A DNA stretch of 64,000 bases from contig JBAYLD010000002.1 in assembly GCA_041664265.1 (NCBI GenBank), positions 35,505 through 99,504 of the forward strand. The letters are read 5' to 3'. The position numbers and the translations under genes are program-made. The DNA comes from Minisyncoccota bacterium (GTDB lineage Bacteria > Patescibacteriota > Minisyncoccia > Phycocordibacterales > Phycocordibacteraceae). The notes beneath the pieces are model-generated. The model saw only the letters and a program-made list of their open reading frames with translations. It was not told the DNA's origin and did no database searches. Positions 17,245 to 63,948 of this stretch are shown piece after piece (position 1 is the stretch's first letter; every line of letters starts with the position of its first letter).

Positions 17245-17253
17245 ATTATACCA
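17245..17253 (-). promoter_or_regulatory. extended -10 element TGGTATAAT 8 nt upstream of ATG (leaderless-type)
   Basis: minus-strand TTTATGGTATAAT; same motif at 33904, 35393, 43066, 45874, 48524/48541, 63940. Confidence 0.45.
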
Positions 17254-17254
17254 T

Positions 17255-17320
17255 AAAAACAGAAACCCCCGCGCAAGCTCTGCAAGCGCGGGGGTCGATT
17301 GTGCATACCGGGTATGCACA
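17255..17320 (-). terminator. terminator hairpin CCCCCGCGC...GCGCGGGGG + T-tract, preceded by perfect palindrome TGTGCATACCGGGTATGCACA
   Basis: minus-strand stem followed by TTTCTGTTTTT; second 21-bp palindrome at 17300-17320. Confidence 0.6.
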
Positions 17321-17323
17321 TGA

Positions 17324-17875
17324 TTAGGTCGGTTCGGGAACAGGTTCTGCTTCGGGCTTCTGACTTCTCAACCATTGAAGCCCCTTCTTGAGCCACTCCA
17401 GCACCTTGTTTTTGCCGGGAGGTCGCGGGATGCAGATTGAAAAGTATACCCACGCGATCCAACATATTACCGAGGCGAACAAAAATAATGGAATCATCAA
17501 GCTAGCCTTATTCCTCAAAGGTGAGGCCAACACGCCTAACAGTATGGACCAAATGAGTCCGCAAACCAATATTGTGAATATTCGCAAGGGCGTCCGATGA
17601 AAGATAGAAAGCCAGAGTCTGTTGTTTACCAGAAACTCAGTCTCCTCGTACTCCACTCTTCGGATAAGGACTCCTACAACAACTGTAGTAATCGAGACGT
17701 ACCCTACGATTAGAGGAATGAATTTGATCACCAAAGCCGCCCAGAGAAATACAAAAGCCAGAACCAGTGACCACTTCTCGAACTTAAACTTTGTTACTTC
17801 TCCGATGAGCTCTTGGGTGCTATCACACACCCACTGTGCCGCGCTCAACAACTTGCCATCTATCCATCTGAGCAT
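17324..17875 (-). CDS. hypothetical membrane protein
   Basis: 183 aa, 4 predicted TM helices. Confidence 0.4.
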   Translation of the reverse strand: MLRWIDGKLLSAAQWVCDSTQELIGEVTKFKFEKWSLVLAFVFLWAALVIKFIPLIVGYVSITTVVVGVLIRRVEYEETEFLVNNRLWLSIFHRTPLRIFTILVCGLIWSILLGVLASPLRNKASLMIPLFLFASVICWIAWVYFSICIPRPPGKNKVLEWLKKGLQWLRSQKPEAEPVPEPT

Positions 17876-18013
17876 TTCAATTCCCTCCTTCCTTTTCTCG
17901 TTAGTAGTTAGTACATCCGGCGCTTAGCATACCGGATCTAATATATCCGTCAACTATCCAAAACAGAATGCGGTCGCATCATGTTGTGGATACCTGTTGC
18001 GAGCGTTTGAGAC

Positions 18014-18056
18014 CGCGAGGTGACACCTTACGGTTGCCGTAAGGTGTCACCTCGCG
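18014..18056. repeat. 43-bp family-B palindrome just downstream of ychF (terminator-like)
   Basis: CGCGAGGTGACACCTTACGG-TTG-CCGTAAGGTGTCACCTCGCG; same sequence occurs in frame in uvrC at 60282-60328. Confidence 0.75.
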
Positions 18057-18061
18057 TCCCG

Positions 18062-19159
18062 CTAGCCGTGGAGGAATACCATCACATCGCCGTCCTTGAC
18101 GATGTAATCCTTCCCTTCTGTTCGCACTTTTGCAGTCTCGCGCGCGGCGGCCCACGAGCCGGCAGAGAGGAGATCGTCGGTCGAGACGACTTCAGCGCGG
18201 ATAAACTTATCCAAAAAGTCGTTGTGGATAGCGGCGCCGGCAACCGGCGCCGTACTCCCCGCTTGAATCGTCCACGCGCGCGTCTCGTCGGTGCCGGTGG
18301 TAAAAAATGAGATCAGCCCGAGCGTGTCATAGGCGCTGCGAATCAGACTCGCAAGCCCGTCTTCTTGGGCGCCGAATTCTTGGCGGAAGGTGTGGCGGTC
18401 TTCATCAGCGACGTCATTCAACTCACGCTCGATCGCGGCGTCGACGCGTACGTAGCGCGACCCGAGCGCTTTAATGAGCTCATACGCCCGCTCCGCGCGG
18501 CCATCTGCGAGTTCATCGAGATTGTGCCCGCCATTTTTTGTATTAAGCGCATAGAGGATCGGCTTCATGGTGAGCAGGTTTAAGGTCGCGATGCGCTTCT
18601 TCTCATCGTCGGTGATCCCCGCGTGGAGAGCGAGCTTCCCTGCAGCAAAAGTTTGTTCGAGTTTGGCAAGCACAGCATCCTCCTCGATCGCATCCTTGCG
18701 TCCGGCCTTGATGTCGCCTGCGATCTTGTCGCGGCGCTTACGCACCTGTTCGGCATCGGCGAGCGCGAGTTCCACATTGATGATCTCGATATCCTTATAG
18801 GGCTCGATAGCCTCTTCGACGTGGGTGATGTTTGGATCGTCAAAGAAGCGCACCACTTCGAGTATCGCATCTGTCTCGCGGATATTCGCGAGGAATTGGT
18901 TCCCGAGCCCCTCTCCGTCTGCGGCACCCTTCACCAGCCCCGCGATGTCTACGAACTCGATCGCCGCCGGGATCGTTTTTGCCGATTTTGACAGGTCCGC
19001 GAGCTTCTCGAGCCGCGCATCCGGCACACCGACCACACCCACTGATGGGTCGATGGTGCAGAATGGATAATTCTCCGCCGGCACCGACGCCTTCGTGAGC
19101 GCGTTAAAGAGCGTGGACTTCCCCACGTTCGGCAATCCGACAATGCCTATCTTCAGCAT
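18062..19159 (-). CDS. ychF: ribosome-binding ATPase YchF (Obg-family GTPase)
   Basis: GIVGLPNVGKSTLFNALT G1 motif, NxxE, TGS-like C-terminus; start at MLKIGIVG. Confidence 0.85.
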   Translation of the reverse strand: MLKIGIVGLPNVGKSTLFNALTKASVPAENYPFCTIDPSVGVVGVPDARLEKLADLSKSAKTIPAAIEFVDIAGLVKGAADGEGLGNQFLANIRETDAILEVVRFFDDPNITHVEEAIEPYKDIEIINVELALADAEQVRKRRDKIAGDIKAGRKDAIEEDAVLAKLEQTFAAGKLALHAGITDDEKKRIATLNLLTMKPILYALNTKNGGHNLDELADGRAERAYELIKALGSRYVRVDAAIERELNDVADEDRHTFRQEFGAQEDGLASLIRSAYDTLGLISFFTTGTDETRAWTIQAGSTAPVAGAAIHNDFLDKFIRAEVVSTDDLLSAGSWAAARETAKVRTEGKDYIVKDGDVMVFLHG

Positions 19160-19216
19160 GTTACCCACTATTGCCTTTTTCTATTCAAATTTCAAGCCCA
19201 AGAATATTCAACTTAT

Positions 19217-19261
19217 GACAAAAAAGAAAGGACCTAACAAGTTTTAAGCTTGTCAGGTCCT
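19217..19261 (-). terminator. rho-independent terminator closing the AT-rich operon
   Basis: AGGACCTGACAAG-CTTAAAAC-TTGTTAGGTCCT then TTCTTTTTTGT on minus strand. Confidence 0.6.
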
Positions 19262-19301
19262 GTGTTTGCTACAACAACTTAATCAACTTTGATTTGTACA
19301 A

Positions 19302-20111
19302 TCACACCTGTGTCTTCCTTACCAAGGCGAAACCATCGGTCTGAAGCAGGATGCCTTTCTTTCGTTCGATGTAACTTAAGATATCTTCTTGAATGTCCTT
19401 GGGGTATTCTCCCCATCGCTTATTCAAGAAAAATTCGACGATTGAAATTACGTCTCGCATATTGCCCGCTATTGGCAAGTGTAATTCTGAATTGGCACTG
19501 CATGTTGATACTTCTATCGATCTGGTTTTGGCCAATTCATAGAATATATCGAGTGCGCTATCGATGGTTAAAGAATGATAACTTTCTTTCATTAACCGGG
19601 ATTTGAATGTAGATCTGAATTCGTGAATGTCATCATTTTTTCTTAAAACAACAACTAGACAACCATCAGAATTCAGCATGTCCAACATCCTCTTGTAAAT
19701 TCGCGGCAACACATCTCGTGCAAACGGAAGATGCGATACCAAGATTACATCGAATGAATTACTCGGCACAAAATCATCAAAAGTAGAGGGATTAATTTCT
19801 ACTTCAGCATACGGAGGAAATTGCTTTGCAATCAATCGCAATCGTTTTATTAAATCCTTGCTCGGCTCAAGCAAAGTTATGCTTACTCTTTTAAGTCGCC
19901 GAGCTCTGATTTTATTTAACGACAACCGAAGATATTCGCCATTTCCTGAACCAATGTCCAAAAGATTCAAATTATCTCGATTGAGTAATTTCCTTAGCAG
20001 ATTCGCTAGCACCGCTGATGATTTTTCCTTTTCGCTGGTGTACTTCAAGAATGTTTCGAAGACCGACTCTTCTTGTTTATCAAGATATTCGAATCCAACG
20101 TCTTTCCCCAT
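19302..20111 (-). CDS. class I SAM-dependent methyltransferase
   Basis: motif I LLDIGSGNGEY; AT-rich codon usage unlike flanks. Confidence 0.65.
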   Translation of the reverse strand: MGKDVGFEYLDKQEESVFETFLKYTSEKEKSSAVLANLLRKLLNRDNLNLLDIGSGNGEYLRLSLNKIRARRLKRVSITLLEPSKDLIKRLRLIAKQFPPYAEVEINPSTFDDFVPSNSFDVILVSHLPFARDVLPRIYKRMLDMLNSDGCLVVVLRKNDDIHEFRSTFKSRLMKESYHSLTIDSALDIFYELAKTRSIEVSTCSANSELHLPIAGNMRDVISIVEFFLNKRWGEYPKDIQEDILSYIERKKGILLQTDGFALVRKTQV

Positions 20112-20221
20112 GACATTTCACCTCCTTCCATTTTATTTAACCCAACTAATTACAAGTTATGGATGGGCGTAAAATAGAAAGGGTGCACCATTACTGATGC
20201 ACCCCACTTAATCCAATAAGA

Positions 20222-21316
20222 TCATGGCGTTCGGATTCCGCGAAGCGGTTCCTCCCCAAAGGTTAGGAACCACAGACTTCGATAATCCTCCCAAACCAAT
20301 GGTCTCATGCTTGTTCCGACAAACAGCTGTTCCAGAATCTGCCTTGCCTCAAGATAATACTCAAGGCGATTGGCTTCTGGATCTTTAAGAGTTGCCTCAT
20401 GGTACTTATGCATTTGCAGAGTATTGATGGTAGGGAACTTGTTAATGTGATCCTTGAAGCAACCGAAGTGGTACTCCATCACATCCAATGGTTCCGTCCC
20501 GACAATGTAGGCGAAATTCACTTCGTACCCTAATCCTCGCGCGAAATCCATGGATTCGCAGGCGTCTCGGAGACTGACCGCCCTCTTCTCCTTTCGCAAC
20601 AGACCTCGACGTTCGAACGTTTCTAATGAGAAGCAGATGCCAAATGGCTGAATCTCGGCGATACTTCTCAACCAATCTTTGCTTATGATCTGCGAACCGA
20701 GATAAAAGATCTTGCCAACAAACTTGTATTCCATCGAGACCTTCTTTAAGGTACGAAGAAATCGGCAAAGATCTTCGCTATTTTCATAGCAACCGGTCAC
20801 AATCGAGATCTGCACCAGATGAGACAAGTCGGTCAATCCGTACTTGGACATCCACCCTTCAAAGAATTCTCTCAGATCGAAGTCGGTTATCAGTTTCTTC
20901 CTATCATAAGGAACCTGATATGCCGCATAACAGAACTTGCAGCCGTGGCATGAAGTTCTGGAATTCGGATTGATATTGAGCGATGTCCCTTTCCTCCGTG
21001 GATAGTGGGAATCGCAAATATCTTCAGTCGGTCCTATCGCCTGTCCGATAACCGTATTCTGCAAAAGCAGAATATTATTGTCGACTACAGTGAAGGGACT
21101 CTCCTGATTAATCGGCAACGCGAAGTAATAATCAAGTTCCTCTCGCTGTTTAGCGTAATTAAACAGATTGCTGTCGGCCAAATGAAGGGCCATCCGCATC
21201 CTGTTGTAATCACACTCGAAGTTAACACCGTTGATGTTAAGAGCGATGAACAATACATCTTCCAGAGGTATGTTATACCTCTCCGCAAGCCGCACAACCG
21301 TGTTGATTTCTAACAT
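20222..21316 (-). CDS. hypothetical protein with CxxCxxC motif (possible Fe-S enzyme), unknown family
   Basis: 364 aa; SCHGCKFCY is not the canonical radical-SAM CxxxCxxC; no other motif recognised. Confidence 0.45.
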   Translation of the reverse strand: MLEINTVVRLAERYNIPLEDVLFIALNINGVNFECDYNRMRMALHLADSNLFNYAKQREELDYYFALPINQESPFTVVDNNILLLQNTVIGQAIGPTEDICDSHYPRRKGTSLNINPNSRTSCHGCKFCYAAYQVPYDRKKLITDFDLREFFEGWMSKYGLTDLSHLVQISIVTGCYENSEDLCRFLRTLKKVSMEYKFVGKIFYLGSQIISKDWLRSIAEIQPFGICFSLETFERRGLLRKEKRAVSLRDACESMDFARGLGYEVNFAYIVGTEPLDVMEYHFGCFKDHINKFPTINTLQMHKYHEATLKDPEANRLEYYLEARQILEQLFVGTSMRPLVWEDYRSLWFLTFGEEPLRGIRTP

Positions 21317-21319
21317 GAC

Positions 21320-22168
21320 TCATAATCCTCCTTTTGAATTTGTCACTACCTCGAGGAAATGATTCCTTCTTTGACAGATGATTAGAGTAGTCAGTACCGG
21401 TACCGAGATAGCGCCGTGCCGTTTAACGATTTCTGAGATGTGTCCAAAGAATCTTGAACGCTTCTCTTCCTCGACTTCAACGATCTTGGGAAAGGTATTG
21501 AGTAGTTTCGGATATGTCTGATCGTCATAGTTGTACACGGTCAGATATTTCCTCAAGTAAATCGGGTAGAACAAGGGATTTGCGACAACCTCTTGTTCTC
21601 TGTGATTTAACTTCAATAACACACCCTCATTCACGTTGTTTACAGTCGATTCATCGGGATAGACATCCGGTAGAAACTCATGATAGGCGTTGTTGATTTC
21701 AGCAGTAACCGATGAATCGTCCTGAAAGAAACTATTCCAGACCAGGATGAGATGACCCGACTTATTGAGCACATCGGAAACTTGTTTGAACTTGTCCCCC
21801 TCGCTCAACCAATGAAATGCTGTGAAGGCCAGAATCGCGTCAAACTTTTCCGCAACCCGGAAATTCTCGAATGTATCCTCGATAATCTCGACATTCTTGA
21901 ACGAACTCGTCTGTTCCCTGGCAATTGCTGCCAGACGTGCGCCCGGTTCGATAGCAACAATATGACAACCGAGCTTAGCAAGCTCGATGGTCGCAATGCC
22001 ACTGCCAGCTCCGATTTCCATTAAACGAGAACTACCATCAATCCCACATTGCTCTTTGATATCTGAGAACAGCGCAACCGGATATCCCGGACGAACTGAA
22101 TGATAATTGTCAGCATATACGTCAAATGACGCATTGAAGATATTTTTCCCTTTGAACATCATAGTCAT
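21320..22168 (-). CDS. class I SAM-dependent methyltransferase
   Basis: motif I LMEIGAGSGIAT; 4-nt overlap with upstream gene. Confidence 0.7.
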   Translation of the reverse strand: MTMMFKGKNIFNASFDVYADNYHSVRPGYPVALFSDIKEQCGIDGSSRLMEIGAGSGIATIELAKLGCHIVAIEPGARLAAIAREQTSSFKNVEIIEDTFENFRVAEKFDAILAFTAFHWLSEGDKFKQVSDVLNKSGHLILVWNSFFQDDSSVTAEINNAYHEFLPDVYPDESTVNNVNEGVLLKLNHREQEVVANPLFYPIYLRKYLTVYNYDDQTYPKLLNTFPKIVEVEEEKRSRFFGHISEIVKRHGAISVPVLTTLIICQRRNHFLEVVTNSKGGL

Positions 22169-22749
22169 TCTCCTTTTATGGTTGATTGATGTAAGAACTG
22201 CATGAACCGATCTTTAACATCGACCAATTCTAATGGCCGACGGAAGTCACGGCGTCCACCGAGTTCAATTTTTGCAACAATGAATCCCGGTCCTTGCCTG
22301 AAATGCAATATAGCACGCCTTAGATCTTTCTGATTATTTACCACCTGTACATACCGATAACCAACAGTAAGTGCTAGTTGATCGAGATGAGCGGAATCAG
22401 ACATTGATTTTTCTTCGTTACAAGAACCATAAGCACTATTATCAATAACGATATGAAGCAAATTTTCAGGTTGCTTATTGCCTATCGTTACAATAGAGCC
22501 AAGATTCATCAACAAACTTGCATCACCATCAATTATTACCACCCGCTTAGTGGGGCACGAGATAGCTAATCCCAACCCAATTGATGATGCGAGTCCCAAT
22601 GAACCGGGAACATAGATATTTCTGACTGAGTCGAATTTTTCGAAAACCTCTCGAGAAATCAACCCCGTTGTTGAAATATTGACTGTATCCGCCGGATCAA
22701 TCACTCTCATAATGGTTTCAATTGCTTCTTTTCTTTTCATCTTTGCCAC
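22165..22749 (-). CDS. TPP-dependent 2-oxoacid decarboxylase, beta subunit (ComE / phosphonopyruvate decarboxylase C-half-like)
   Basis: TPP-binding IDGDASLLMNLGS...N motif. Confidence 0.65.
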   Translation of the reverse strand: MAKMKRKEAIETIMRVIDPADTVNISTTGLISREVFEKFDSVRNIYVPGSLGLASSIGLGLAISCPTKRVVIIDGDASLLMNLGSIVTIGNKQPENLLHIVIDNSAYGSCNEEKSMSDSAHLDQLALTVGYRYVQVVNNQKDLRRAILHFRQGPGFIVAKIELGGRRDFRRPLELVDVKDRFMQFLHQSTIKGE

Positions 22750-23276
22750 CCCCTCTTTAGTAACAAGAATGTAGGAAGTTTGACCTTACGCATTTTTTGG
22801 AACATTGAAGTGACAAGTATCGGTATGTCTTGCCCTCCAAAAACCACAAATGGTAAACCAAATGACCGAAGCAAAGCTTCAGTTGCCCCACCTGTTGTTA
22901 AGTGTTGCACCGCATCTTCACCCTCGCATCCACGATAAGATACCGTAAAAAAGACCGGGATCTTATAAGGAACAAGTAGAGACGCAATGTCGTTTGAAGC
23001 AGCGAAAAGACCGGAGTTTTGCATATAGACGATGGGAGTTTTGCCAGCAAAGTATGCGCCAGCCACTAACCCAACGGCTTCAGACTCGCGGTTAGCAGAC
23101 ACATGAAGCATCTTAGGCTCATCAATAAAATTCTTAATGATATGCCTTAACACTCCACATGGAACTCCAGATACAAAATCGACACCAAATTTTAAGAACT
23201 GCTGGTGCATTTGATCTGCTTTTTCGCTACGTCTTCCATCCAGCACATTGAATACACTTCCTTCATCTGTGTTCAC
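22737..23276 (-). CDS. TPP-dependent 2-oxoacid decarboxylase, alpha subunit (ComD / Ppd N-half-like)
   Basis: GVDFVSGVPCGVL pyrimidine-binding domain; GTG start with RBS AAAGGAGGAAAT. Confidence 0.65.
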   Translation of the reverse strand: MNTDEGSVFNVLDGRRSEKADQMHQQFLKFGVDFVSGVPCGVLRHIIKNFIDEPKMLHVSANRESEAVGLVAGAYFAGKTPIVYMQNSGLFAASNDIASLLVPYKIPVFFTVSYRGCEGEDAVQHLTTGGATEALLRSFGLPFVVFGGQDIPILVTSMFQKMRKVKLPTFLLLKRGWQR

Positions 23277-23329
23277 GTTTATTTCCTCCTTTTTATTTTA
23301 TTTAGTATGTCAAAGAGCCCCTGTCTTCC

Positions 23330-23418: not shown

Positions 23419-25239
23419 TTATTCATGCAATCCTATATGCAACTCATAGAGATGACGATAGATGCCTCCTTCGATCAGCACGAGATCATCGTGGCTACCG
23501 CTTTCAGCAATATGACCTTCCTTTAGAACGAGTATCTTCCCCGCCTTGCGTACCGTCGAGAGTCGATGCGCGATGATGAATGTTGTGCGATTGTGCATGA
23601 GCTTCTCGAGTGCACTCGTAACGAAACGTTCGGTTTCTGAATCAAGTGCCGAGGTCGGCTCGTCAAGAATGAGAATCTCTGGATCACGTAAAATTGCGCG
23701 CGCAATGGCGATTCTTTGCTTTTGCCCCACCGAGAGTTTAATACCGCGCTCGCCGACGAGTGTCTGATATCCATTCGGCAAATCTGTGATGTACTCATCT
23801 ATGTGTGCCTCGCGTGCGGCGTGTGCAATTTGTTCTTCTGTTGCATCAAACATCCCGTAGCAAATGTTGTTACGAATAGTATCATTGAAAAGCGCAACTT
23901 CTTGCGGGACGACAGCGATGCGTGTACGCAAGTCAGTAAGGTCCCAATGGCGTGTATCGAGACCATCAACCATCACACTGCCTGCACTTGGGAAATAATA
24001 TCCAGACACTAGCGAGACGGTCGTACTCTTCCCTCCGCCGGACTCGCCGACGAGTGCGATGACTTCACCTGGGTTAACAGTAAATGACATGTTAGAGAGC
24101 ACCTCGGCCTGATCGGCGTCATAATGAAACGAAACATGATCAAACGCGATTCGCCCTGAATGTTCAGTCGGTACTGTGGCGGTAATGGGGTGATAATTTT
24201 CTTCTTTCTCGTTAAAAACTCTTTCGAGTTGGCCAGCTGCGGTCAAACCATTCTGGACCATCTGCCAACTTTGACCGAGAGCGACAAAAGGCCCAAAGAA
24301 CATGAGAGCATACCCATTCAGAGCGATAAGCTCTCCAACGGTCATTGAGCCATTCGCTACTGAGCTCGCCGAAGCAACAAAAACGGTAAGCTGTGTGAGA
24401 AATACAATAGTACGTTGAAAGAATCCCGCATTGCTCCATATTCGGTCAAGGGAATGCCAAAGCTGGCCAGTTTTCCCTGCGAGATTTTTCTGCACCTTGG
24501 CAATCTCGTACTTTTCTGCGGCTGCCTGCTTTACTGAAGCAACTTGTTGTACTGCTGCCGCTGCATCGTCCCAATATTCATTCCACGATTCATGAGCGAT
24601 GTGATCAATTGTGGCAACCGGTCGTAACATAAATACGAGTACCACGCCATAGAAAAGAACACCGGCTGCTAGCACACCAGCCATCGGAAGACTTATTGTT
24701 GCCGCAAGAATAATGCCGATTGCAACCGAGAGGAGTTGCGGCCCAATCTGAATTGCGTTCTGCATGATCGACGAAATGCGCCATCCTGCCATACTAATCT
24801 TAGAAAGTACCCCGTTTATGTGTTCATTGGAGTGATATGTAAGCGGAAGTTTGAAAAGATGAGCGAATCCTTCGGTCTGAATAGCAAGATGGGACTGCAC
24901 ATCAATCGTGCGACGTTTGCGATCCATCACCCAGTCGATGCTATTTGCCACAACCTGAATGACCGCCCAAATAGCGAGCATGAGTGCCCAAAATGGAAAT
25001 GTGCCGCCGTTTGTTTTTCCTTGCGAAAGACTGATGAGCGCATCAAAAAATCGCCCAGTGATGTAAGGTACTGCGCCATTAGCAACTGCAGAAATAAAAC
25101 CAAGAAAACCAAGTACAAAAAATTCGTTACGATAACGGCGAGTGTGCCGCCAGATACCTCGTATACCCTCGCGCATAGACACCGGCTCTGTCCTTATTTC
25201 TTCAACTGCATCCTCGTCGGAATCCTTAATATCGATCAT
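23419..25239 (-). CDS. ABC exporter, fused permease + ATPase (MsbA-like type I)
   Basis: six N-terminal TM helices; Walker A GESGGGKST; signature LSVGQKQRIAIARA; Walker B ILILDEPTSALD. Confidence 0.85.
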   Translation of the reverse strand: MIDIKDSDEDAVEEIRTEPVSMREGIRGIWRHTRRYRNEFFVLGFLGFISAVANGAVPYITGRFFDALISLSQGKTNGGTFPFWALMLAIWAVIQVVANSIDWVMDRKRRTIDVQSHLAIQTEGFAHLFKLPLTYHSNEHINGVLSKISMAGWRISSIMQNAIQIGPQLLSVAIGIILAATISLPMAGVLAAGVLFYGVVLVFMLRPVATIDHIAHESWNEYWDDAAAAVQQVASVKQAAAEKYEIAKVQKNLAGKTGQLWHSLDRIWSNAGFFQRTIVFLTQLTVFVASASSVANGSMTVGELIALNGYALMFFGPFVALGQSWQMVQNGLTAAGQLERVFNEKEENYHPITATVPTEHSGRIAFDHVSFHYDADQAEVLSNMSFTVNPGEVIALVGESGGGKSTTVSLVSGYYFPSAGSVMVDGLDTRHWDLTDLRTRIAVVPQEVALFNDTIRNNICYGMFDATEEQIAHAAREAHIDEYITDLPNGYQTLVGERGIKLSVGQKQRIAIARAILRDPEILILDEPTSALDSETERFVTSALEKLMHNRTTFIIAHRLSTVRKAGKILVLKEGHIAESGSHDDLVLIEGGIYRHLYELHIGLHE

Positions 25240-25283
25240 CTAGGCAGTATACACCTCGGTTCTTCGAGCAGAAACGAAGAATA

Positions 25284-26541: not shown

Positions 26542-26604
26542 AAGGTAATTATACTATGATATTGAATAGATGTCGAGTCTGCGAGATGTGCTAGGCTTCA
26601 GGCT

Positions 26605-51295: not shown

Positions 51296-51327
51296 AAGCC
51301 TTCGGTTACTCCGAAGGCTTTTATTAT
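51296..51327 (+). terminator. rho-independent terminator
   Basis: AAGCCTTCGG-TTACT-CCGAAGGCTT then TTTATTATTG. Confidence 0.7.
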
Positions 51328-51423
51328 TGAACCATTACGGGAGCTTGACTTTTTCATGGTGGTATGCTAAGCTTTATCAAGGCAATTTGATCTCTCAAAT
51401 GAACGTGAGAAGGAGGTGCGGAA

Positions 51424-51861
51424 GTGAAGAAAAAAGTTCTTTGTGTTTGCGCTGGTAATACCTGCCGGAGTCCTATGATGGCAGCCTTGCTCCAAAAGGA
51501 ACTCGGTAACGAGTTCCAGATGGAGAGCGCGGGTTGGTTCAGGAATCAAGTTGGCGAGCCAGCGAGCGAAAATGCTGTATTTTTTATGAGGGTCAGAGGT
51601 ATCGATATCAGTGAACATAAAGCTCGCTGGATCAGAGATCTCGATCTCAAAGCATTCTCGCATATTGTGTGTGTGAATCCTGACATGGCATACAACATCC
51701 GGTCCAATCTCGAAAACGATCAGACAATGGTTCTCATCGCTGGAGTAGAGGTCGGAGGAGTGCCGGACCCGTATGGAAAAGGAAGAGACGCCTATCGTGA
51801 GTGTGCAAACCTTCTAGATAAGGCCATGCACGAAATCGCCGCGATAATCCGCAACTCTTAA
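51424..51861 (+). CDS. low-molecular-weight protein-tyrosine phosphatase
   Basis: canonical CVCAGNTCRS P-loop; GTG start with RBS AAGGAGG. Confidence 0.7.
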   Translation: MKKKVLCVCAGNTCRSPMMAALLQKELGNEFQMESAGWFRNQVGEPASENAVFFMRVRGIDISEHKARWIRDLDLKAFSHIVCVNPDMAYNIRSNLENDQTMVLIAGVEVGGVPDPYGKGRDAYRECANLLDKAMHEIAAIIRNS

Positions 51862-53744: not shown

Positions 53745-53765
53745 TTCTCAAGTATATACCGTTTG

Positions 53766-53838: not shown

Positions 53839-53968
53839 TGCACGAGCGATTCTACCACGACCCCCGATTATTTTCATCGCCCTGTCCCACCACAGTATGC
53901 ACCCGCCGGGGTTGCATCTTCACAGAAACTTCATGTTAGACTGCCGACAGAATAGTTATTTTGACATC

Positions 53969-55600: not shown

Positions 55601-55629
55601 GCACACGACGTACCATACCAGACATTTGC

Positions 55630-56589
55630 TTAGATTCCCAGATTCGCGAGCGCGCTCCTCACTCTGCCGATCGGCAGGGCGAAGCCGATGTTCTGCGAAC
55701 CCTGCACCATCGCGACGTTGACGCCGACGGCTTCGCCCGTAAGGTTGACCAAGGGGCCGCCCGAATTGCCGGGGTTGATAGCGGCATCGGTCTGAATGAT
55801 GCCGGTCAAGGTCTCGGTGTTGCCTTGGCTATCTGAAGCGGTAATGCTCCGATCGAGCCCCGAGACGACCCCGACAGAGACCGAGTTGCTATATTGTCCA
55901 AGCGCATTCCCCACCGCGAATACTGACTGTGCGAGCCGGAGCGCCGAGGAGTCGCCAAGCGGGACAACCGGATACCCGCTCCCAGGGATCTTCACAACGG
56001 CGAGATCCTCGCTCGAGGAGCGCCACACGACCGTGCCCGACTGCTGGGCGCCGCTTGAGAGCAAGACGGTATACGTCGCGTTCGGCACATTCGGCACGAC
56101 GTGCTTGTTGGTGACGATATACCCGCTTGAGCGCACGAGGAATCCGGTCCCGGCCGAGATGCGTTCGGTCGTCGTGCCGACCTGCTCATACACCGGCACC
56201 CGTATTCCAAAATCGCGGAAGAAGGGATCATTACCAAACGGGTTCTCGTACGTTACTTGTAGCTTCGGCACTTCTCGGCTCTCGACGATCGAGACGACTG
56301 CTGGCGTCACCCTCGCCACGGCATCTTGGAGCGATAGCGTCTCCTCCTTCTGCACCACAATCTCACGCCGCACGGTCTCGGTAATGTTCGCGGCGGTGTT
56401 CGGTGCCGTCGAGCTCGCGAGCTCGGCGAGCTGGATGACTGAACCTTGGAGCATCGCAATGGAGTCTTCGAGCGTCGCTACCGAACGCGCGAGCTGCCCC
56501 CTCTCCTGATTCTCGTACACGAGCCCGCCCGCGAGTGCCACTATCGCTAGTAACGCCGCGAGCCAGAGATAATCAATGGTATCCTTCAT
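55630..56589 (-). CDS. trypsin-like serine protease (HtrA/DegP-family S1C, no PDZ)
   Basis: GNSGGPLV catalytic Ser motif, TNKHVV His region, N-terminal TM. Confidence 0.75.
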   Translation of the reverse strand: MKDTIDYLWLAALLAIVALAGGLVYENQERGQLARSVATLEDSIAMLQGSVIQLAELASSTAPNTAANITETVRREIVVQKEETLSLQDAVARVTPAVVSIVESREVPKLQVTYENPFGNDPFFRDFGIRVPVYEQVGTTTERISAGTGFLVRSSGYIVTNKHVVPNVPNATYTVLLSSGAQQSGTVVWRSSSEDLAVVKIPGSGYPVVPLGDSSALRLAQSVFAVGNALGQYSNSVSVGVVSGLDRSITASDSQGNTETLTGIIQTDAAINPGNSGGPLVNLTGEAVGVNVAMVQGSQNIGFALPIGRVRSALANLGI

Positions 56590-56714
56590 TTTTCCTATTA
56601 TACCGGATGCCGGGAGAATCGGTGCCTCACGATCGTGAGTGCCCCCTTATCCGCATTTATGGGGTGCGTTACCACTATGAACTCATGCGTACGCCGCATA
56701 GATGATGGGGAGCT

Positions 56715-58265
56715 TCATTTTGAAACGGTGAAGAACTTTTGCGGGATCTCATGCGCCGCGACAATAGATTCATTCTGGCTGTTCCTCTTGAGGAGAATGA
56801 TCATGTCGGTATCGAGGTATACAGGAGCCCATTCCGGATCGAACACTTTGGTAGTGATAAATGCTTGGCCCCACGGCGTATAGTCCCGGTAATAAAATAA
56901 AATTGCGTTAAATGCATAGGTTTTTTCCAATTCTTTGAAGAGAGCGGGATTCTCCATTGCGGCGATATATTCCCCATCAACAAATCGTTTGGTGTACGCC
57001 TCTGGGCGATTGTCGAAAAAGACCTTCTCACCTGGGAAAAGGCCGAAAATGGCGTATCCACCACTATCGTAGTTATTAAAGAGCGGCCCCTTGATTTCAT
57101 TTGCCTTGAAGAATTCAATGGCGTCATGAGCCCCCTCTTTGACGCCAATCCCGAAGTCGCTGCTCCGTTGTACCACCAGCCCCAGGGCGAGCACCATACC
57201 AGCCATTGCGAGAAGAAAAAAGAGCGGGAATGCCAGCATTTCTTTTGTGAGGAACTTGAACCTGCCGACCCCGTGCTCGCGAATTATTTCTATATTCGTT
57301 ACGGTTGCGGCAACGCCAACCAAGCCGAAAAGAGGAAAGTCCCGTATGGCAAACCAGCCCATGACACCATAGACCGCACTCACGATGAGGAGTGGCGCTG
57401 ATATTTTCCTCCACTGGACAAACGCGGCCACGATAGAGCTTACGAGCACCAACGCGACCAAAATCTTGTATGCAGAGAACGTATACGGATTCCCCATGTC
57501 CAAATGCTCCAAAAAGCTGATTGATTGGTTTTCAAATACTCGGTAGCTATATGAATCAAAGATATGAAAGGGGTATAGTGCGCCGCGTATAAACGAAGGG
57601 TTTGCCAACATCACCAGACAGGCAGCCAGCAACACGCGACCGAGCGCAACAGCTTTCGAAAAATGCTTGCGCACGAGAGACGATAAGAAGAAAACGCCGA
57701 TGATGAATGGGCCGAGGATAAACCCGACGTGCAGGTTTACCCAGAGGAGCTGTACGGCCGGCATGAGCCAGAGCCATTTTTTATCTATACTCCCTTCATC
57801 ATATCGCAGACACACCCACAGGAAGAACGCGGCAAAGAGGTAGGTGAATACTTCTGGCCGTACTTCTGCGCGAGAGGCTATCACCACGATGCCAACACAC
57901 GAGATGGTAAATAGTATCCACGGATGCGCCCTGTCTCGAATGAGGTCAAAGATAAGCCAAAAGGCAGCCACCATGCCGGCAATATAGAGAATGGATAACC
58001 CGGAAAAACCAACGACGGTGAAGAATAGAAAAAAGATAACACCCGACAACCAATGATGATTAACGAAGGGTGTACCGCCTTCGGTATACGAATAATAATT
58101 TGTCGTTACTACCGCGGTTCTCTCCGCGGCGCTCCCGGTCAATACTATTTCCCCATTCTTAATATGCCGACCGAGATCCGCGGTAAAAAGGTCGATCTTG
58201 ACCATGAGAGAAACAGTAAGGACGCTTGCCAATGCCAAAAACAATATCTTCTGGTTGGTCGTCAT
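56715..58265 (-). CDS. polytopic membrane protein with C-terminal soluble domain (possible GT-C-type glycosyltransferase)
   Basis: more than 10 TM helices; start at MTTNQKILF to avoid overlap with tRNA-Ala. Confidence 0.45.
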   Translation of the reverse strand: MTTNQKILFLALASVLTVSLMVKIDLFTADLGRHIKNGEIVLTGSAAERTAVVTTNYYSYTEGGTPFVNHHWLSGVIFFLFFTVVGFSGLSILYIAGMVAAFWLIFDLIRDRAHPWILFTISCVGIVVIASRAEVRPEVFTYLFAAFFLWVCLRYDEGSIDKKWLWLMPAVQLLWVNLHVGFILGPFIIGVFFLSSLVRKHFSKAVALGRVLLAACLVMLANPSFIRGALYPFHIFDSYSYRVFENQSISFLEHLDMGNPYTFSAYKILVALVLVSSIVAAFVQWRKISAPLLIVSAVYGVMGWFAIRDFPLFGLVGVAATVTNIEIIREHGVGRFKFLTKEMLAFPLFFLLAMAGMVLALGLVVQRSSDFGIGVKEGAHDAIEFFKANEIKGPLFNNYDSGGYAIFGLFPGEKVFFDNRPEAYTKRFVDGEYIAAMENPALFKELEKTYAFNAILFYYRDYTPWGQAFITTKVFDPEWAPVYLDTDMIILLKRNSQNESIVAAHEIPQKFFTVSK

Positions 58266-58277
58266 GACAATTACGAG

Positions 58278-58350
58278 TGGACCGTACAGGATTCGAACCT
58301 GCGACCCCCGCATTGCAAATGCGGTGCTCTACCAACTGAGCTAACGGCCC
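58278..58350 (-). tRNA. tRNA-Ala(UGC)
   Basis: GGGCCGU acceptor with G3:U70, anticodon loop UUUGCAA, T-arm GCAGGUUCGAAUCCUGU. Confidence 0.85.
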
Positions 58351-58365
58351 AACTTTTCTATCCTA

Positions 58366-58803
58366 TCATTCCTTGAAGTATTTCTCCAACACCGGAAGAT
58401 ACCCGGAAACAAATTCATGCTGATGCAATTCTTCAGCAGTTATCCAGGCAAAATCATTGTTTTCGAAACTAAGTTCGATCTTTCCTTCTTGGTACCGACA
58501 TTTAAAAACGACCAACATAACCTGATTCGCAGCCGCTCCTGGGTTATTCCAAGGACGTCGCATGATATCAATCATGTCTCCAATTTCAACTCGAAAGGCC
58601 TCCCCTAATTCCTCCCTTATTTCTCTCTTGAGAATTTCTTCAAGCGGAGTTTCTTCTTCTCCTTCGGCGATCTTTCCACCAGGTAATTCCCATTTCCCTC
58701 CATCGAAAAAATGCGTGGGTTCTTGCGTGATAAGCACCTTGCCGTCATTGTTTACGATAAGACCTTTTACTCCCACGTACGATATTTTGTTTTTATTACC
58801 CAT
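58366..58803 (-). CDS. NUDIX hydrolase
   Basis: GGKIAEGEEETPLEEILKREIREELG Nudix box. Confidence 0.7.
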   Translation of the reverse strand: MGNKNKISYVGVKGLIVNNDGKVLITQEPTHFFDGGKWELPGGKIAEGEEETPLEEILKREIREELGEAFRVEIGDMIDIMRRPWNNPGAAANQVMLVVFKCRYQEGKIELSFENNDFAWITAEELHQHEFVSGYLPVLEKYFKE

Positions 58804-59776: not shown

Positions 59777-59795
59777 AGAAATAGTATACCAGGCC

Positions 59796-61127
59796 TCAAA
59801 TCAAAATTTGCACTCGCATCTCGCGCAAGTTTCTGCTTCTCGCTCTGCGATGACGTGCGAGAGAAAACCGATGTGCTTCAGAATTCGCCAGAACCGCGTC
59901 TGCTTCGCTTATTCCTGAAGTACGCGCTCCGATAACCTCGCGCGGGCGGTGCCGCTCGTCTTTCACCACAGCAACCACGGAGATCTTCATGCCAAACTCG
60001 ACAAGTACCGCCTCGGCCGCACGCTTCTGCGTGCGGCCGCCGTCTACGACGATCACTCGCGGAAACGGCCACTCGGGATGATTCAGTCGCCGTGTCAGAA
60101 TTTCCTTTAGCGAGGCAATATCATCATTTTTCATGTGGGACTTCGGAAGTCCCACATTCCCACGGATGCGGAATGTCCGATATTCTTTTTTCGCGGGAAC
60201 GCCATCTATGACCACCGTCATCACCCCAATCGCATTCGTACCCGAGAGGTGTGCAACGTCATATGCCTCAATCCGCAAGGTCCCGCGAGGTGTCACCTTA
60301 CGGCAACCGTAAGGTGACACCTCGCGGGACTCGTCCTTAATGAGCGAGACATCCTGGACATGATCGAGCGCGAAGAGCTCGCGGCGCCGCGCGGACGCGT
60401 CTTCGAAACGTTCTTCTTTAGCCGCGTGGCGCATTTCTTTTTCAAGCGCCAGACGCAACTCTTTGCCGCGCCCACTTAAAAAGAGCATCACATGACGAAT
60501 CGTGCGTCGATATTTTTTTGCATCAAACTCGCGCGGATATTGTTTGATTTGTTTATTGAATTCTATTTTTGCCTGATGATGTTTCCCGGGCGCTGTAACG
60601 GGCTTGGCTGTGTCAAAGAACGGAAATATCTTACGGATAAGCCGCAGAGCCTCTTTCAGCTGCGCCCCGCTCGGGAACGGCCCGTATATCGCGCGCAAGG
60701 TGACTCCTCGCAACAAGGTGACTCCTCGCCGCGAGGTGTCTCCTTGTTGCCCTTGTTGCTCTAAATCTTTGCCGCGCACGACAAGCACGCGCGGAATGTC
60801 TTCTTCGGTAATCACTGCATAAAGAAATGTCTTATCGTCCTTCCCTTCTGCATTCGCCGCCGGGTGATACTGCTTGATCAGCGCCGCCTCGCGCACGAGA
60901 GCCTCAAGCACCGTTGGGGTCGTCTCAAAGGCGACGCGATCGGCTTTGGTCACCATATCTACCACGCGCGGCCCGCGTGTTGCGATCAGGTCGTCATCAA
61001 AATAACTCCGCACCCGATCGCGGAGCGAAGTCGCCTTGCCAACATACAAGACTTTTCTGCCCTGCTTAAAGAGATACACCCCCGGGACATCCAGCAGATC
61101 AAACTTTTTTAGCTCGTTTCGTTGCAT
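59796..61127 (-). CDS. uvrC: excinuclease ABC subunit C, short form with in-frame repeat insertions
   Basis: GIY-YIG VPGVYLFKQGRKVLYVGKATSLRDRV; 443 aa; 29-nt overlap with uvrA. Confidence 0.8.
   Translation of the reverse strand: MQRNELKKFDLLDVPGVYLFKQGRKVLYVGKATSLRDRVRSYFDDDLIATRGPRVVDMVTKADRVAFETTPTVLEALVREAALIKQYHPAANAEGKDDKTFLYAVITEEDIPRVLVVRGKDLEQQGQQGDTSRRGVTLLRGVTLRAIYGPFPSGAQLKEALRLIRKIFPFFDTAKPVTAPGKHHQAKIEFNKQIKQYPREFDAKKYRRTIRHVMLFLSGRGKELRLALEKEMRHAAKEERFEDASARRRELFALDHVQDVSLIKDESREVSPYGCRKVTPRGTLRIEAYDVAHLSGTNAIGVMTVVIDGVPAKKEYRTFRIRGNVGLPKSHMKNDDIASLKEILTRRLNHPEWPFPRVIVVDGGRTQKRAAEAVLVEFGMKISVVAVVKDERHRPREVIGARTSGISEADAVLANSEAHRFSLARHRRARSRNLREMRVQILI
60134..60156. repeat. family-A palindrome TGTGGGACTTCGGAAGTCCCACA in frame in uvrC (VGLPKSH)
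   Basis: identical core to uvrA copy at 63822-63844. Confidence 0.8.
60282..60328. repeat. 47-bp family-B palindrome in frame in uvrC (REVSPYGCRKVTPRG)
   Basis: CCCGCGAGGTGTCACCTTACGG-CAA-CCGTAAGGTGACACCTCGCGGG. Confidence 0.8.
60696..60759. repeat. degenerate tandem/inverted family-B-like repeats in uvrC (QGDTSRRGVTLLRGVTL)
   Basis: CAAGGTGACTCCTCGC twice in tandem, then CGCGAGGTGTCTCCTTG. Confidence 0.6.
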
Positions 61128-63900
61128 GGCGTTTCAAGGCGTTGGCGAGATACTCGCCCGTATACGAACCCTGGGTGTCGGCAACCTCTTCGGGCGTACC
61201 CTTGGCGATAATCTTACCCCCGCCCGCCCCGCCCTCAGGGCCGAAGTCGATGACATAATCAGCACTCTTGATGATATCGAGATTGTGCTCAATGACAACG
61301 ACGGAGTTGCCGCGCCGCACGAGCTCCTGCAAGATCTCGATAAGCTTCTTCACATCCTCATAATGGAGACCGACCGTGGGCTCATCGAGGAGATAGATCG
61401 TCTTCATCGGCATAGGACGATAGAGCTCGCTCGCGATCTTGACCCTTTGAGCCTCGCCGCCGGAGAGCGTTGTCGCGCTCTGACCGAGAGTGAGGTATTC
61501 GAGCCCGGTCGCGTTGAGACTCGCGAGGCGGTCGGCAATCGCAGGGATGTCGCCGAAAAATTTCTCTGCCTCTTCGATGGTCATCTGGAGCACCTCATAA
61601 ATATTTTTGCCGCGATAGGTCACTTCGAGCGTCTCCTTCATAAAGCGTTTCCCTTCGCAGATATCGCAGGTGACATATACCGTCGGGAGGAAGTGCATCT
61701 CAACGGCGACCGAGCCATTGCCCTGGCACGCCTCGCAGCGGCCGCCAGGAACGTTGAAGGAGAATCGACCCGGCTTCCAGCCACGCGCACGTGCAGCGGC
61801 GGTCGAAGCGAAGAGATCGCGAATGTGCGTAAATGCGCCAGTGTAGGTCGCGGGGTTGCTGCGTGGCGTGCGGCCGATCGGCGATTGATCGATAAGCACG
61901 GCACGCCCGAGATATTCGGTACCGGTGAGTGATGCAACATGCTCAAGCTTCGTCTCGCGGCGAGTGAAGCGCGCGGCGATGTTGCGATGGAGAATATCGT
62001 AAAGGAACGTGGACTTCCCGCTCCCCGATACGCCAGTGATGCACACGAGCTTACCGAGCGGTACGTCAATATTCTGATTCACAAGATTGTGCAAAGTCGC
62101 GCCGCGCACCTTCAACCAGCCCTTCTCACTGATGCGGCGTTCTTCGGGCACGGGGATTTCTTTTTCTTGCCGCAGGTACGCGAGCGTGAGCGACTCCGCG
62201 GCGGAAGTCAGACTTCCTGACTTCTTCGCGGAGAGCAAATCATCGAGCCATCCGGCCGCGACAACCTTGCCGCCATGCACGCCTGCACCCGGTCCGATAT
62301 CCACGAGATAATCAGAAGAAAAGATAGTTTCTTCATCATGCTCGACCACAATGATCGTGTTGCCGAGCTCTTTGAGCGTAAGGAGCGTTTTGATGAGACG
62401 ATCATTGTCGCGCTGGTGCAGACCGATAGTTGGCTCATCAAGCACATAAAGGGCGCCTGTGAGTCCAGATCCAAGCTGGGACGCGAGGCGAATCCGCTGA
62501 GCTTCGCCTCCAGAAAGAGTAGCCGCCGAGCGGTTGAGTGTGAGGTAGTCGAGGCCGACATTCAGCATAAAGGTGAGGCGGCTCTCGATCTCCTTCAATA
62601 TCGGCATCGCGATATCGAATTTCATATCTGAGAGCTCGATAGTGTCTATAAAATCTTTTGCTTCTCTGATGGACATATTTGTAAAATCCACAATGTTCAC
62701 TCCGAGCCCATGTTTGGACTTCGTAAGTCTGGATTCAGAGGAGGACTTACGAGGTCCTTTCATTCCTGTGCTTTGCAGATACACGCGCAGCGACTCCGGC
62801 CTCAGGCGCTTCCCCTCGCACACCGGACACGGCTCTTCAGAGAAGAGCGACGCGGTACCGAGCCCGTGGCACTCCGGACACGCGCCATAGGGCGAGTTGA
62901 ATGAGAAGAGGCGCGGCTCCACCTCGGGGAATGACGCGCCATCTTCGGGACAAATAAATTTTGAAGAAAGAGTTTCCAACGTTCCATCAGCATGCTTTAT
63001 CTTCACCAAACCATTCGCCTCTTTGAGCGCGAGTTCGAGCGCCTCAGAGAGGCGCTCGCGCGCATTCGCCGTCGCGCGGGAGAATTCAGAGACGAAGATG
63101 GTGTCAACGACCGCGTCAATGTCGTGGCGCTTGTTCCGATCAAGCTCGATCTTCTCACGAAGCGACTGCGACTTGCCGTCGATCACGACGCGCTCATAGC
63201 CCTTGCCGAGAAGATCGTAGAGCAGTTGATAGTATTCACCCTTGCGCCCCACAACGACCGGCGCATAAATAGTCACAGCAGTCTTATCAACCGCGACACC
63301 CATCACTACAGGCGCTCCACAAGTCAGACTTCCAGAATCCGTATGTGAAGTCTGACTTCCTAAGTGCCTTTTTGCTTCCACTCTCTCAAACACCATTTTA
63401 ATCATCTCCTCCTTCGAGAGCCGCACGATCGGCACATCGTGGTGGATGCAGTAGGGCTGGCCCGCGCGCGCATAGAGCACGCGCAAATAATCATAAATCT
63501 CGGTCACCGTCGCAACCGTCGAACGCGGATTATTCGAGCGGCTCTTCTGGTCAATCGAGATGGCCGGCGAGAGGCCGGTGATCTCGTCGACGTCCGGCTT
63601 CGCCATTTGGTTCAAAAATTGCCGGGCATAGGCCGAGAGCGACTCGACGTAGCGTCGCTGGCCTTCTGCAAAAATAGTGTCGAAAGCGAGCGAACTCTTC
63701 CCCGAGCCCGAGAGCCCCGTAATAACCGTCATCGCCCCGCGCGGCATCGCGACATCGATATTCTTTAAATTATGGGTACGCGCGCCCTTCACGACGAGCC
63801 AGTCGCTCCCGTGCTTTGACGTGTGGGACTTCGGAAGTCCCACATCTGATGTGTGACTTCCGAAGTCCTTACATTCTTTGGTTTTGGTTGATTTCTTCAT
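61099..63900 (-). CDS. uvrA: excinuclease ABC subunit A
   Basis: two ABC ATPase modules (Walker [10 protein letters not shown] and GVSGSGKST), zinc-finger Cys pairs; 933 aa. Confidence 0.9.
62716..62757. repeat. family-A palindromic element in frame in uvrA ([16 protein letters not shown])
   Basis: GGACTTCGTAAGTC...GGACTTACGAGGTCC. Confidence 0.75.
63321..63366. repeat. family-A-related inverted/direct repeat in uvrA ([15 protein letters not shown])
   Basis: AGTCAGACTTCC...GAAGTCTGACTTCC. Confidence 0.6.
63822..63876. repeat. 55-bp family-A palindromic element in frame near uvrA N-terminus ([18 protein letters not shown])
   Basis: TGTGGGACTTCGGAAGTCCCACA + GACTTCCGAAGTCCTTACATTC. Confidence 0.8.
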
Positions 63901-63939
63901 GCAAAACCCCTGCCCGTGGAGGGGCAGGTACGGTATGAG

Positions 63940-63948
63940 TATACCACA
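63940..63948 (-). promoter_or_regulatory. extended -10 TGGTATACT upstream of uvrA
   Basis: minus-strand AATGTGGTATACT; palindromes CCCTGCCC..GGGCAGG and AGCAGGGGTACCCCTGCT nearby. Confidence 0.4.

Follow-up and report, generated by a model that had tools for sequence, protein, structure and literature searches.

Recurrent extended -10 elements in Kaiserbacteria-like Paceibacterota DNA: likely -35-independent promoters, many placed for leaderless mRNAs

In the stretch of DNA analyzed here (64 kb of contig JBAYLD010000002.1, hereafter the window, with positions counted from its first base), the short motif TGGTATAVT recurs between genes and often stands within a few nucleotides of a start codon, which raises the question of what the motif does and how the genes behind it are transcribed and translated. 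We consider it likely that the motif is the -10 element of -35-independent sigma-70 promoters of the extended -10 class, many of which stand where they would give leaderless mRNAs. The window is Kaiserbacteria-like Paceibacterota DNA of the Candidate Phyla Radiation (CPR): its Pfam matches, among them DUF5671, SWIB, and SET domains and a short AlaRS (582 aa), are compatible with the CPR, and every ddl relative retrieved from the GTDB species genomes comes from a metagenome-assembled genome (MAG) of Candidatus Kaiserbacteria, Paceibacterota, or Parcubacteria, with protein identity up to 85%. The CPR, or Patescibacteria, account for a large share of bacterial diversity, have almost no cultured members, and have reduced ribosomes.

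Is the motif more frequent than the composition of the DNA predicts, and where does it lie? A search of both strands recovered 10 exact copies of TGGTATAVT against 0.42 expected from dinucleotide-preserving shuffles, in which the maximum was 2, and six copies of the longer form TRTGGTATAVT against 0.11 expected; 6 of the 10 exact sites thus carry TR at -17/-16. On a gene map of long open reading frames (ORFs) and six tRNAs, all 10 fall in the non-genic 9.7% of the window (P of about 7e-11), with the partial exception of a copy that overlaps the leuS stop codon, and all are co-directed with the next gene on their own strand. A preliminary description of this DNA had claimed at least eight copies, always intergenic and facing the adjacent gene, and these claims hold. 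The positions it listed are correct to within 1 to 3 nt, although it overlooked the sites at 1307, 13855, and 59783; the copy it placed at 35393 is no exact match but TGGTATAAA at 35391-35399, with one mismatch, and the one it placed at 48541 is real but is the minus-strand copy at 48530-48538. The hexamers of the ten sites are TATAAT, TATACT, or TATAGT only, and what the sites share is limited to a core of 9 to 11 nt, with nothing in common in the flanks. With the spacer counted as the nucleotides between the last T of the motif or hexamer and the ATG, a start codon follows at 6 to 9 nt at 6 of the 10 sites, and the chance of at least six of ten is about 1e-5. These quantities, like the conservation, start-codon, and -35 results given below, were computed directly. 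The ten sites, with Shine-Dalgarno (SD) sequences mentioned where relevant, are as follows.

1307-1315, minus strand: extended -10 TGGTATAAT, 7 nt before ATG 1299 of gene 88-1299 (403 aa, without a family match; the gene call of the public contig gives an identical 403-aa product); leaderless type.
13855-13863, minus strand: TGGTATAGT, overlapping the leuS stop, 57 nt before ATG 13797.
17245-17253, minus strand: TATGGTATAAT, 8 nt before ATG 17236 of the DUF5671 protein gene 16265-17236, directly after a terminator hairpin; leaderless type.
33904-33912, minus strand: TGGTATACT, 9 nt before ATG 33894, which opens a 56-aa membrane-type ORF (33724-33894).
43065-43073, minus strand: TATGGTATAAT, 16 nt before ATG 43048 of the SET-domain gene 42515-43048, which has no SD; a terminator-like hairpin (43110-43079) directly precedes the site.
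45874-45882, minus strand: TGTGGTATACT, 7 nt before ATG 45866, which opens 21 codons; the NUDIX gene starts 176 nt downstream.
48524-48532, plus strand: plus-strand -10 copy of a palindrome, 38 nt before ATG 48571 of the SWIB-domain gene.
48530-48538, minus strand: minus-strand -10 copy of the same palindrome, 7 nt before ATG 48522 of the gene for a 76-aa protein (48292-48522).
59783-59791, minus strand: TGGTATACT, 6 nt before ddl ATG 59776, within the 19-nt uvrC-ddl gap; leaderless type.
63938-63946, minus strand: TGTGGTATACT, candidate uvrA promoter in the uvrB-uvrA gap, 37 nt before ATG 63900; conserved in 36 relatives.

What kind of signal is it? The motif carries the sigma-70 signature of T-12, A-11, and T-7 together with TG at -15/-14, and the region where a -35 hexamer would stand is unremarkable: the mean best match at the ten sites is 2.6/6 against 2.4/6 at random positions (P of about 0.29), and a scan of the window for canonical -35/-10 pairs found no enrichment (20 found against 16.7 expected). 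For comparison we used the ddl relatives, a set of 80 loci amounting to 1.13 Mb around this single locus. In a sequence logo of 250 leaderless-type upstream regions from these relatives, ddl excluded, T (54%) and G (57%) stand at -15/-14, T/R is weakly preferred at -17/-16, and the -35 region holds at most 0.08 bits. Among all 64 patterns of the form XYNNNZ at 6 to 9 nt before ORF starts, TANNNT alone is strongly enriched (4.0-fold, the next pattern reaching 1.6-fold), so the signal is not general AT-richness.

The tRNA genes point the same way. Before the mature 5' ends of 214 tRNA genes in the relatives, TANNNT peaks at 8 to 11 nt (94 cases, 56 of them with the TG extension), and a fixed distance before untranslated genes argues for a transcription signal. 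This spacing predicts 5' leaders of only about 2 to 5 nt on the tRNA precursors, so that 5' processing would probably still be needed. Three of the six tRNAs in the window have such a box, and the form TGnTATGGT is conserved before tRNA-Val in the relatives.

53849-53857, minus strand: TGGTAGAAT, 10 nt before the tRNA-Ala(cgc) 5' end at 53838.
55612-55620, minus strand: TGGTATGGT, 11 nt before the tRNA-Val 5' end at 55600.
58360-58368, minus strand: TGATAGGAT, 9 nt before the tRNA-Ala(tgc) 5' end at 58350.

Is the short distance to the start codon a conserved property? In the 79 loci usable for the ddl comparison (48 to 85% protein identity), a TATACT (58 loci), TATAAT (11), or TACAAT (6) box lies 4 to 12 nt before the ddl ATG in 77, at 6 to 8 nt in 70, and with TG at -15/-14 in 57, and the upstream DNA is otherwise unalignable. 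In distant relatives the Ddl N-terminus is two residues shorter and the -10 box has shifted along with the ATG, so it is the start codon, rather than the coding sequence, to which the box is tied. All 3 relatives found for the DUF5671 gene have retained GTGGTATAAT-N8-ATG, and among eight relatives with the gene of the 76-aa protein, most place a -10-like box about 6 nt ahead of its ATG, despite different neighbors. Before the SWIB-domain gene the relatives have TGnTATA(TA)CT about 38 to 40 nt upstream, then an A-rich leader without an SD.

A wider search for the motif relative to gene starts, which the preliminary description had proposed, was run on the relatives and gave the same spacing throughout. 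TGNTATAVT occurs there 185 times, in 83 cases with the first ATG at 6 to 9 nt, and 81 of these 83 ATGs begin ORFs that are 60 aa or longer; nothing was seen in the control with reversed orientation. Before the first ATG of 1,038 ORFs of at least 150 aa, TANNNT was counted 144, 76, 54, and 51 times at spacers of 6, 7, 8, and 9 nt, over a background of about 20 per position. When start codons were compared (TGnTANNNT before ORFs of at least 100 codons), ATG peaked with 98, 50, 36, and 25 cases at spacers 6 to 9, and GTG, TTG, and CTG showed no peak at 6 to 9 nt. A peak confined to ATG is what would be expected if a 5'-terminal AUG were itself the ribosome-binding signal, and it is unexpected if the box were a ribosome-binding site.

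By this spacing about 20 of the 60 genes in the window are of leaderless type, and all 20 such starts are ATG; 13 genes have a strong AAGGAG-type SD, and 3 of these 13 SD-led starts are GTG. No SD stands before the leaderless-type starts because a spacer of 6 to 9 nt is too short to contain one. For the relatives, the net share of genes with the box at leaderless distance is 20 to 24%, and that of genes with an SD is 5 to 10%. The flanking 20 kb of the contig, used as a check outside the sample, again show a -10 box 6 to 9 nt before the ATG, at tyrS, a DUF5663 gene, tgt, grpE, dnaJ, and one hypothetical gene. The other candidate promoters in the window, most of them at leaderless distance, are the following.

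2408-2416, minus strand: TGTTAGAAT, 6 nt before ATG 2401 of gene 1367-2401, overlapping the alaS stop; candidate internal leaderless promoter.
12678-12686, minus strand: TGCTATACT, 6 nt before ATG 12671 of gene 11292-12671, directly after a terminator-like hairpin and T-run.
13835-13807, minus strand: second, nearer candidate promoter for ATG 13797, with TTGACT (13835-13830), a spacing of 17 nt, and TGCTATAAA (13815-13807), 9 nt before the ATG.
25246-25251, minus strand: TATACT, 6 nt before ATG 25239 of the ABC transporter gene 23419-25239.
26553-26548, minus strand: TATAAT, 6 nt before ATG 26541; back-to-back partner of the following site in a 63-bp gap.
26589-26597, plus strand: TGCTAGGCT, 7 nt before ATG 26605; leaderless-type pair with 26553-26548.
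35391-35399, plus strand: TGGTATAAA, one-mismatch relative, about 67 nt before the radical-SAM gene 35467-37026, which has a strong SD; leadered type.
51360-51369, plus strand: TGGTATGCT, plus arm of a shared -10 (TATGCTA), preceding the SD-led gene 51424-51861.
51360-51369, minus strand: TAGCAT, minus arm of this shared -10, 6 nt before ATG 51357 of gene 51103-51357.
53751-53756, minus strand: TATACT, 6 nt before ATG 53744 of the PEP-utilising enzyme gene 51858-53744.
56597-56605, minus strand: CGGTATAAT, 7 nt before ATG 56589 of the trypsin-like protease gene 55630-56589.

How would such an element work? The promoters would be of the housekeeping sigma-70/SigA type, with an extended -10 of the form TRTGnTATAMT and no recognizable -35 hexamer; sigma region 3.0 would contact the TG at -15/-14 and region 2 would contact T-12, A-11, and T-7. 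RNA polymerase would initiate about 7 nt past the hexamer, so that a box 6 to 9 nt before the ATG would put the 5' end of the transcript at the AUG or within 0 to 3 nt of it; with a spacer of 6 nt, the start 7 nt downstream would be the A of the AUG itself. A 70S ribosome or the initiator tRNA would then bind the 5'-terminal AUG without SD pairing, as is established for leaderless mRNAs elsewhere (PMC4007540). The positions at which transcription starts, and the leaderless translation itself, are inferred. The same element would also serve genes with short or roughly 30-nt leaders lacking an SD (predicted at about 9 to 10 nt for the SET-domain gene and about 30 nt for the SWIB-domain gene and uvrA), as well as SD-led genes and the tRNA genes with their predicted leaders of 2 to 5 nt. 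The preliminary description had called the motif an extended -10 promoter, a reading that the comparative and statistical tests support, and had named three genes as leaderless; leaderless placement is likewise supported by these tests and is borne out for the genes starting at 17236 (8 nt) and 48522 (7 nt), but the SET-domain gene, at 16 nt, would have its short leader.

Several observations weigh against this reading. The whole case is built from sequence, for this organism as for any Paceibacterota. Four of the ten exact sites are outside leaderless distance, with the spacers of 16, 37, 38, and 57 nt listed above. Of the 12 TGNTATAVT copies in the window, 10 have the G at -13 that gives the TGG form, compared with 57 of the 185 copies in the relatives, where this base is unbiased; TGG is favored by this genome and is no general rule, and the 20 kb of the same contig flanking the window hold no more exact copies of TGGTATAVT. 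Finally, the lineage-wide counts take the first ATG of each ORF as its start, and some starts assigned in this way will be wrong.

Do the ATGs behind the boxes really open the genes? The alternative that survives best accepts the promoters and supposes that these ATGs are not translated starts, the true ones lying further on behind ordinary leaders, or that they open short upstream ORFs. The ATG behind the 45874 site does open only 21 codons, which also counts against our reading, that behind the 33904 site starts a 56-aa ORF upstream of the kinase gene, and leaderless leader peptides exist in Deinococcus deserti (PMC4007540). We nevertheless judge this alternative unlikely: the Ddl alignment to 79 relatives begins at residue 1 to 5 of the ORF from this ATG, 209 ATGs at 6 to 9 nt after TGnTANNNT all open ORFs of at least 100 codons (the criterion by which they were included), and the independent gene calls of the 126-kb public ENA metagenome contig that carries the window (ERZ27249449 k141_464617) agree on these starts. 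The public contigs with identical proteins are ordinary metagenome contigs that span the promoters and are uninformative on RNA ends.

Could the TA-rich box act in translation instead? It might be a ribosome-binding or translation-enhancing element other than an SD inside longer mRNAs, like the motif of GeneMarkS-2 'group B' or bS1-bound AU-rich sites. The spacing of 6 to 9 nt is also that of an SD, SD use in the relatives is low (about 5 to 11%), about half of Parcubacteria reportedly lack the anti-SD (PMC9297842), and in the ribosomal protein operon beside the window AU-rich ATTTAAA spacers stand in place of SD sites. A further point for this alternative, and against our own reading, comes from gene order: with ddl left out, a gene that follows a same-strand neighbor at less than 30 nt is as likely to have the box (about 30%) as a clear first gene, a frequency that would also be expected of a translation signal within polycistronic mRNAs. 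We read the boxes of genes 10 to 30 nt behind a neighbor as probable internal promoters in tiny gaps, a pattern that is ambiguous. The specificity for ATG with no GTG or TTG peak, the TG extension, and the tRNA data argue otherwise: the pattern is precisely the sigma-70 TANNNT with TG at -15/-14 rather than mere AT-richness, the same box stands at a fixed distance before untranslated tRNA genes, and it also occurs 16 to 57 nt from starts and as divergent pairs on opposite strands. Genes that overlap or nearly abut their upstream neighbor, moreover, carry it only near background (11 to 19%). A translational element is in our estimation very unlikely. The 3' end of 16S rRNA, sought as a check on the anti-SD, was not found in the window, the 80 related loci, or the 20 kb flanking the window.

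That the motif is an operator of a DNA-binding regulator, or belongs to a mobile element or dispersed repeat, is less probable still; in favor are one site that is a 7+1+7 palindrome and the over-representation of the TGG form here (10 of 12 TGnTATAVT copies against 57 of 185 in the relatives). Only the core of 9 to 11 nt recurs, between unrelated flanks, 9 of 10 sites are non-palindromic, the palindrome itself is unconserved (the two genes lie apart in relatives and each keeps its -10 box), and the strict orientation and fixed distance to an ATG or tRNA 5' end suit a promoter. A chance or compositional artefact, for which nothing speaks except that intergenic DNA is AT-rich, is refuted by the shuffles (never more than 2 matches against 10 observed), by the placement statistics for intergenic location and ATG spacing, and by conservation of the element before ddl across 79 species.

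If the motif is indeed a promoter of this kind, how little room does it need? About 15 bp would suffice, and candidate promoters therefore fit into the 19-nt uvrC-ddl gap, follow terminator hairpins directly (17245, 12678, and 43065), lie across stop codons (13855 and 2408), and pair head-to-head. The perfect 15-bp palindrome noted in the preliminary description is real but lies at 48524-48538 and not at 48523-48537; its 7-bp arms TGGTATA and TATACCA flank a central G, and the hexamers at 48527-48532 (plus strand) and 48535-48530 (minus strand) overlap by 3 bp, which by geometry alone predicts divergent starts about 16 to 17 bp apart. In the second bidirectional candidate, TATGCTA at 51363-51369, the hexamers at 51363-51368 (plus strand) and 51369-51364 (minus strand) overlap by 5 bp, for a predicted spacing, again from geometry alone, of 18 bp. 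One arm is of leaderless type in both pairs. We rejected the palindrome as a conserved regulatory site, given that the two genes are not adjacent in relatives and each has its own -10 box; on this comparison it is a juxtaposition specific to this genome.

What stands between promoter and gene where the leader is longer? Before uvrA the predicted leader begins with a hairpin.

63909-63928, minus strand: conserved hairpin CCUGCCC-CUCCAC-GGGCAGG, between the 63938 promoter and the ATG, where the uvrA mRNA is predicted to have its 5' end.

It begins 9 nt after the hexamer, about 2 to 3 nt into the predicted mRNA, with a predicted folding energy of -14.8 kcal/mol, and the 7-bp hairpin is present before uvrA in 36 relatives (e.g., at L004:6075-6097 and L039:4537-4559). 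In the 37-sequence alignment (A1), all 259 pair cells form standard pairs, compensatory changes occur at two pairs (UA, AU, GC, GU, and UG at one; CG and UA at the other), and the covariation score was reached by 0 of 500 shuffles. The G-U pairs favor an RNA structure on the sense strand, and since the relatives have no U-run after the hairpin, it is not a terminator. A search of Rfam around the uvrA leader with E values up to 1 gave no match, and Rfam at gathering thresholds over the whole window found the six tRNAs only. The hairpin may be an undescribed RNA element of the uvrA 5' untranslated region in Paceibacterota; a role in mRNA stability or regulation would be a guess.

Several of the genes behind these sites have features of their own. 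A 58-codon ORF on the minus strand (45709-45885), without a family match, begins inside the 45874 promoter in a frame that differs from that of ATG 45866, and one added A in the AAAA run at 45863-45860 would fuse this ATG to the 58-codon ORF, giving a protein start of MKKYHIIFQ; an indel from assembly, a pseudogene, or a leader peptide might each account for the arrangement. The idea of a HicB-type antitoxin remains a guess, as the ORF has no Pfam or NCBIfam match and tblastn on the relatives gave nothing convincing. The 56-aa ORF at 33724-33894 (minus strand) has one predicted membrane helix, and its stop overlaps the start of the histidine-kinase gene 32072-33727 (ATGA), an overlap that points to translational coupling between the kinase and the leaderless-type small ORF. 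The protein of 359 aa encoded at 12718-13797 (minus strand) combines a sigma-70 region 4 (residues about 28 to 88) with a HARE-HTH domain resembling the RNA polymerase delta subunit (about 240 to 300) and has no sigma region 2, an unusual architecture for a transcription factor; its gene has its own leaderless-type promoter. A 532-aa ORF without a family match (56715-58313, minus strand), also called on the public contig, would overlap tRNA-Ala (58277-58350) by 37 nt if it started at 58313, and its true start is probably further downstream.

Start signals also vary along the DNA. G+C content is lower at about 17300-23300 and 33900-45100 (0.39 to 0.48 per gene against 0.53 to 0.61 elsewhere), and most of the strong SD sites of the form AAGGAGG are found there, along with several GTG starts; the mean G+C is 53.4% for leaderless-type genes and 48.6% for SD-led genes. 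The low-G+C stretches may be acquired DNA with a different start signal. Just beyond position 1 of the window, the ribosomal protein and rpoA operon (rpsM, rpsK, rpsD, rpoA, and rplQ; L083:11560-14300) has no SD, and its spacers contain repeated ATATTTAAA(C/T) units directly before each ATG, which may be an AU-rich translation-start signal for internal operon genes. ATTTAAA as a general ribosome-binding signal was rejected, as its occurrences upstream of ORF starts in the relatives do not peak at any position, and it seems confined to this operon. Among translation factors, YchF is encoded at 18062-19168 (minus strand), and infA (IF1) lies just outside the window (L083:11276-11563); YchF is a reported modulator of leaderless-mRNA translation in Escherichia coli and has been noted as retained in the CPR (PMC12641178).

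How far might this extend? We suggest, tentatively and as something short of an expectation, that the default mode of expression across Paceibacterota is a promoter of about 15 bp without a -35 element, set directly against the functional RNA (5'-AUG mRNAs, and tRNAs with leaders of 2 to 5 nt), with leaderless starts commoner than SD-led ones; the counts pointing to this come from about 1.1 Mb around one locus and from simple start-codon assumptions. A published survey recovered the anti-SD motif from no more than 48% of Parcubacteria and left open the start mechanism of the remainder (PMC9297842), for which a leaderless architecture conserved across the lineage would be a concrete and testable answer. 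If true, the suggestion would supply the missing explanation for translation start in members with reduced ribosomes, about half of which are without the anti-SD motif. Gene-start prediction for these MAGs should adopt a promoter-at-minus-10 model, a full promoter is possible within intergenic gaps as short as 19 nt, and the native 5'-AUG design could serve heterologous expression of CPR genes.

Which known systems does this resemble? Extended -10 (TGn) promoters, or '-16 region' TRTGn promoters, are known in E. coli and in Gram-positive bacteria, with the consensus TRTGnTATAAT and a TG that offsets a missing -35, and -35-poor promoters are known in Campylobacter, Helicobacter, and Mycoplasma. 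The classical extended -10 promoters are a minority class where they occur, whereas here this is the dominant promoter form; here, too, the element is coupled to a fixed distance from starts and tRNA 5' ends, and G is favored at -13. In Nanoarchaeum equitans, tRNA transcription is leaderless, with the promoter very close to the mature tRNA 5' end; the fixed and very short distance between promoter and tRNA is similar, but leaders of 2 to 5 nt are predicted here against none there.

Bidirectional promoters that arise from symmetry of the -10 element have been described by Warman, Grainger, and colleagues, with preferred start spacings of 18 (the commonest), 10, and 23 bp (PMC12825309). The pair at 51363-51369, with its predicted spacing of 18 bp, matches this geometry, whereas the palindrome at 48524-48538, with a hexamer overlap of 3 bp and a predicted spacing of about 16 to 17 bp, differs from the described classes. 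Both pairs also differ from that comparison in having one leaderless-type arm and in an arrangement that is unconserved in relatives.

The closest likeness is to the genomes that GeneMarkS-2 places in 'group C', which have a Pribnow box 6 to 8 nt from the gene start and comprise 90% of Actinobacteria and 97% of Deinococcus-Thermus (PMC6028130). In D. deserti, differential RNA sequencing found 60% leaderless mRNAs, with the -10 directly upstream and no conserved -35, and a GUG start in 176 of 916 zero-leader mRNAs (PMC4007540). As in group C members such as D. deserti and Mycobacterium tuberculosis, many starts in the present DNA have a Pribnow box 6 to 8 nt upstream, the genes concerned lack an SD, there is no conserved -35, and leaderless and SD-led genes occur in one genome. 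The differences are that the signal here is confined to ATG, unlike in D. deserti with its additional GUG starts, that the TG extension is frequent here, unlike in the group C comparison systems, and that the lineage is the CPR and Paceibacterota rather than Actinobacteria or Deinococcus-Thermus and is known in this respect from sequence alone. A full-text search of the accessible literature found no report of a leaderless mRNA architecture in CPR, Patescibacteria, Saccharibacteria, or Parcubacteria; what it matched were entries in reference lists or concerned YchF. The architecture proposed here is a known design, demonstrated by experiment in Deinococcus and the mycobacteria, in a lineage that is new for its documentation.

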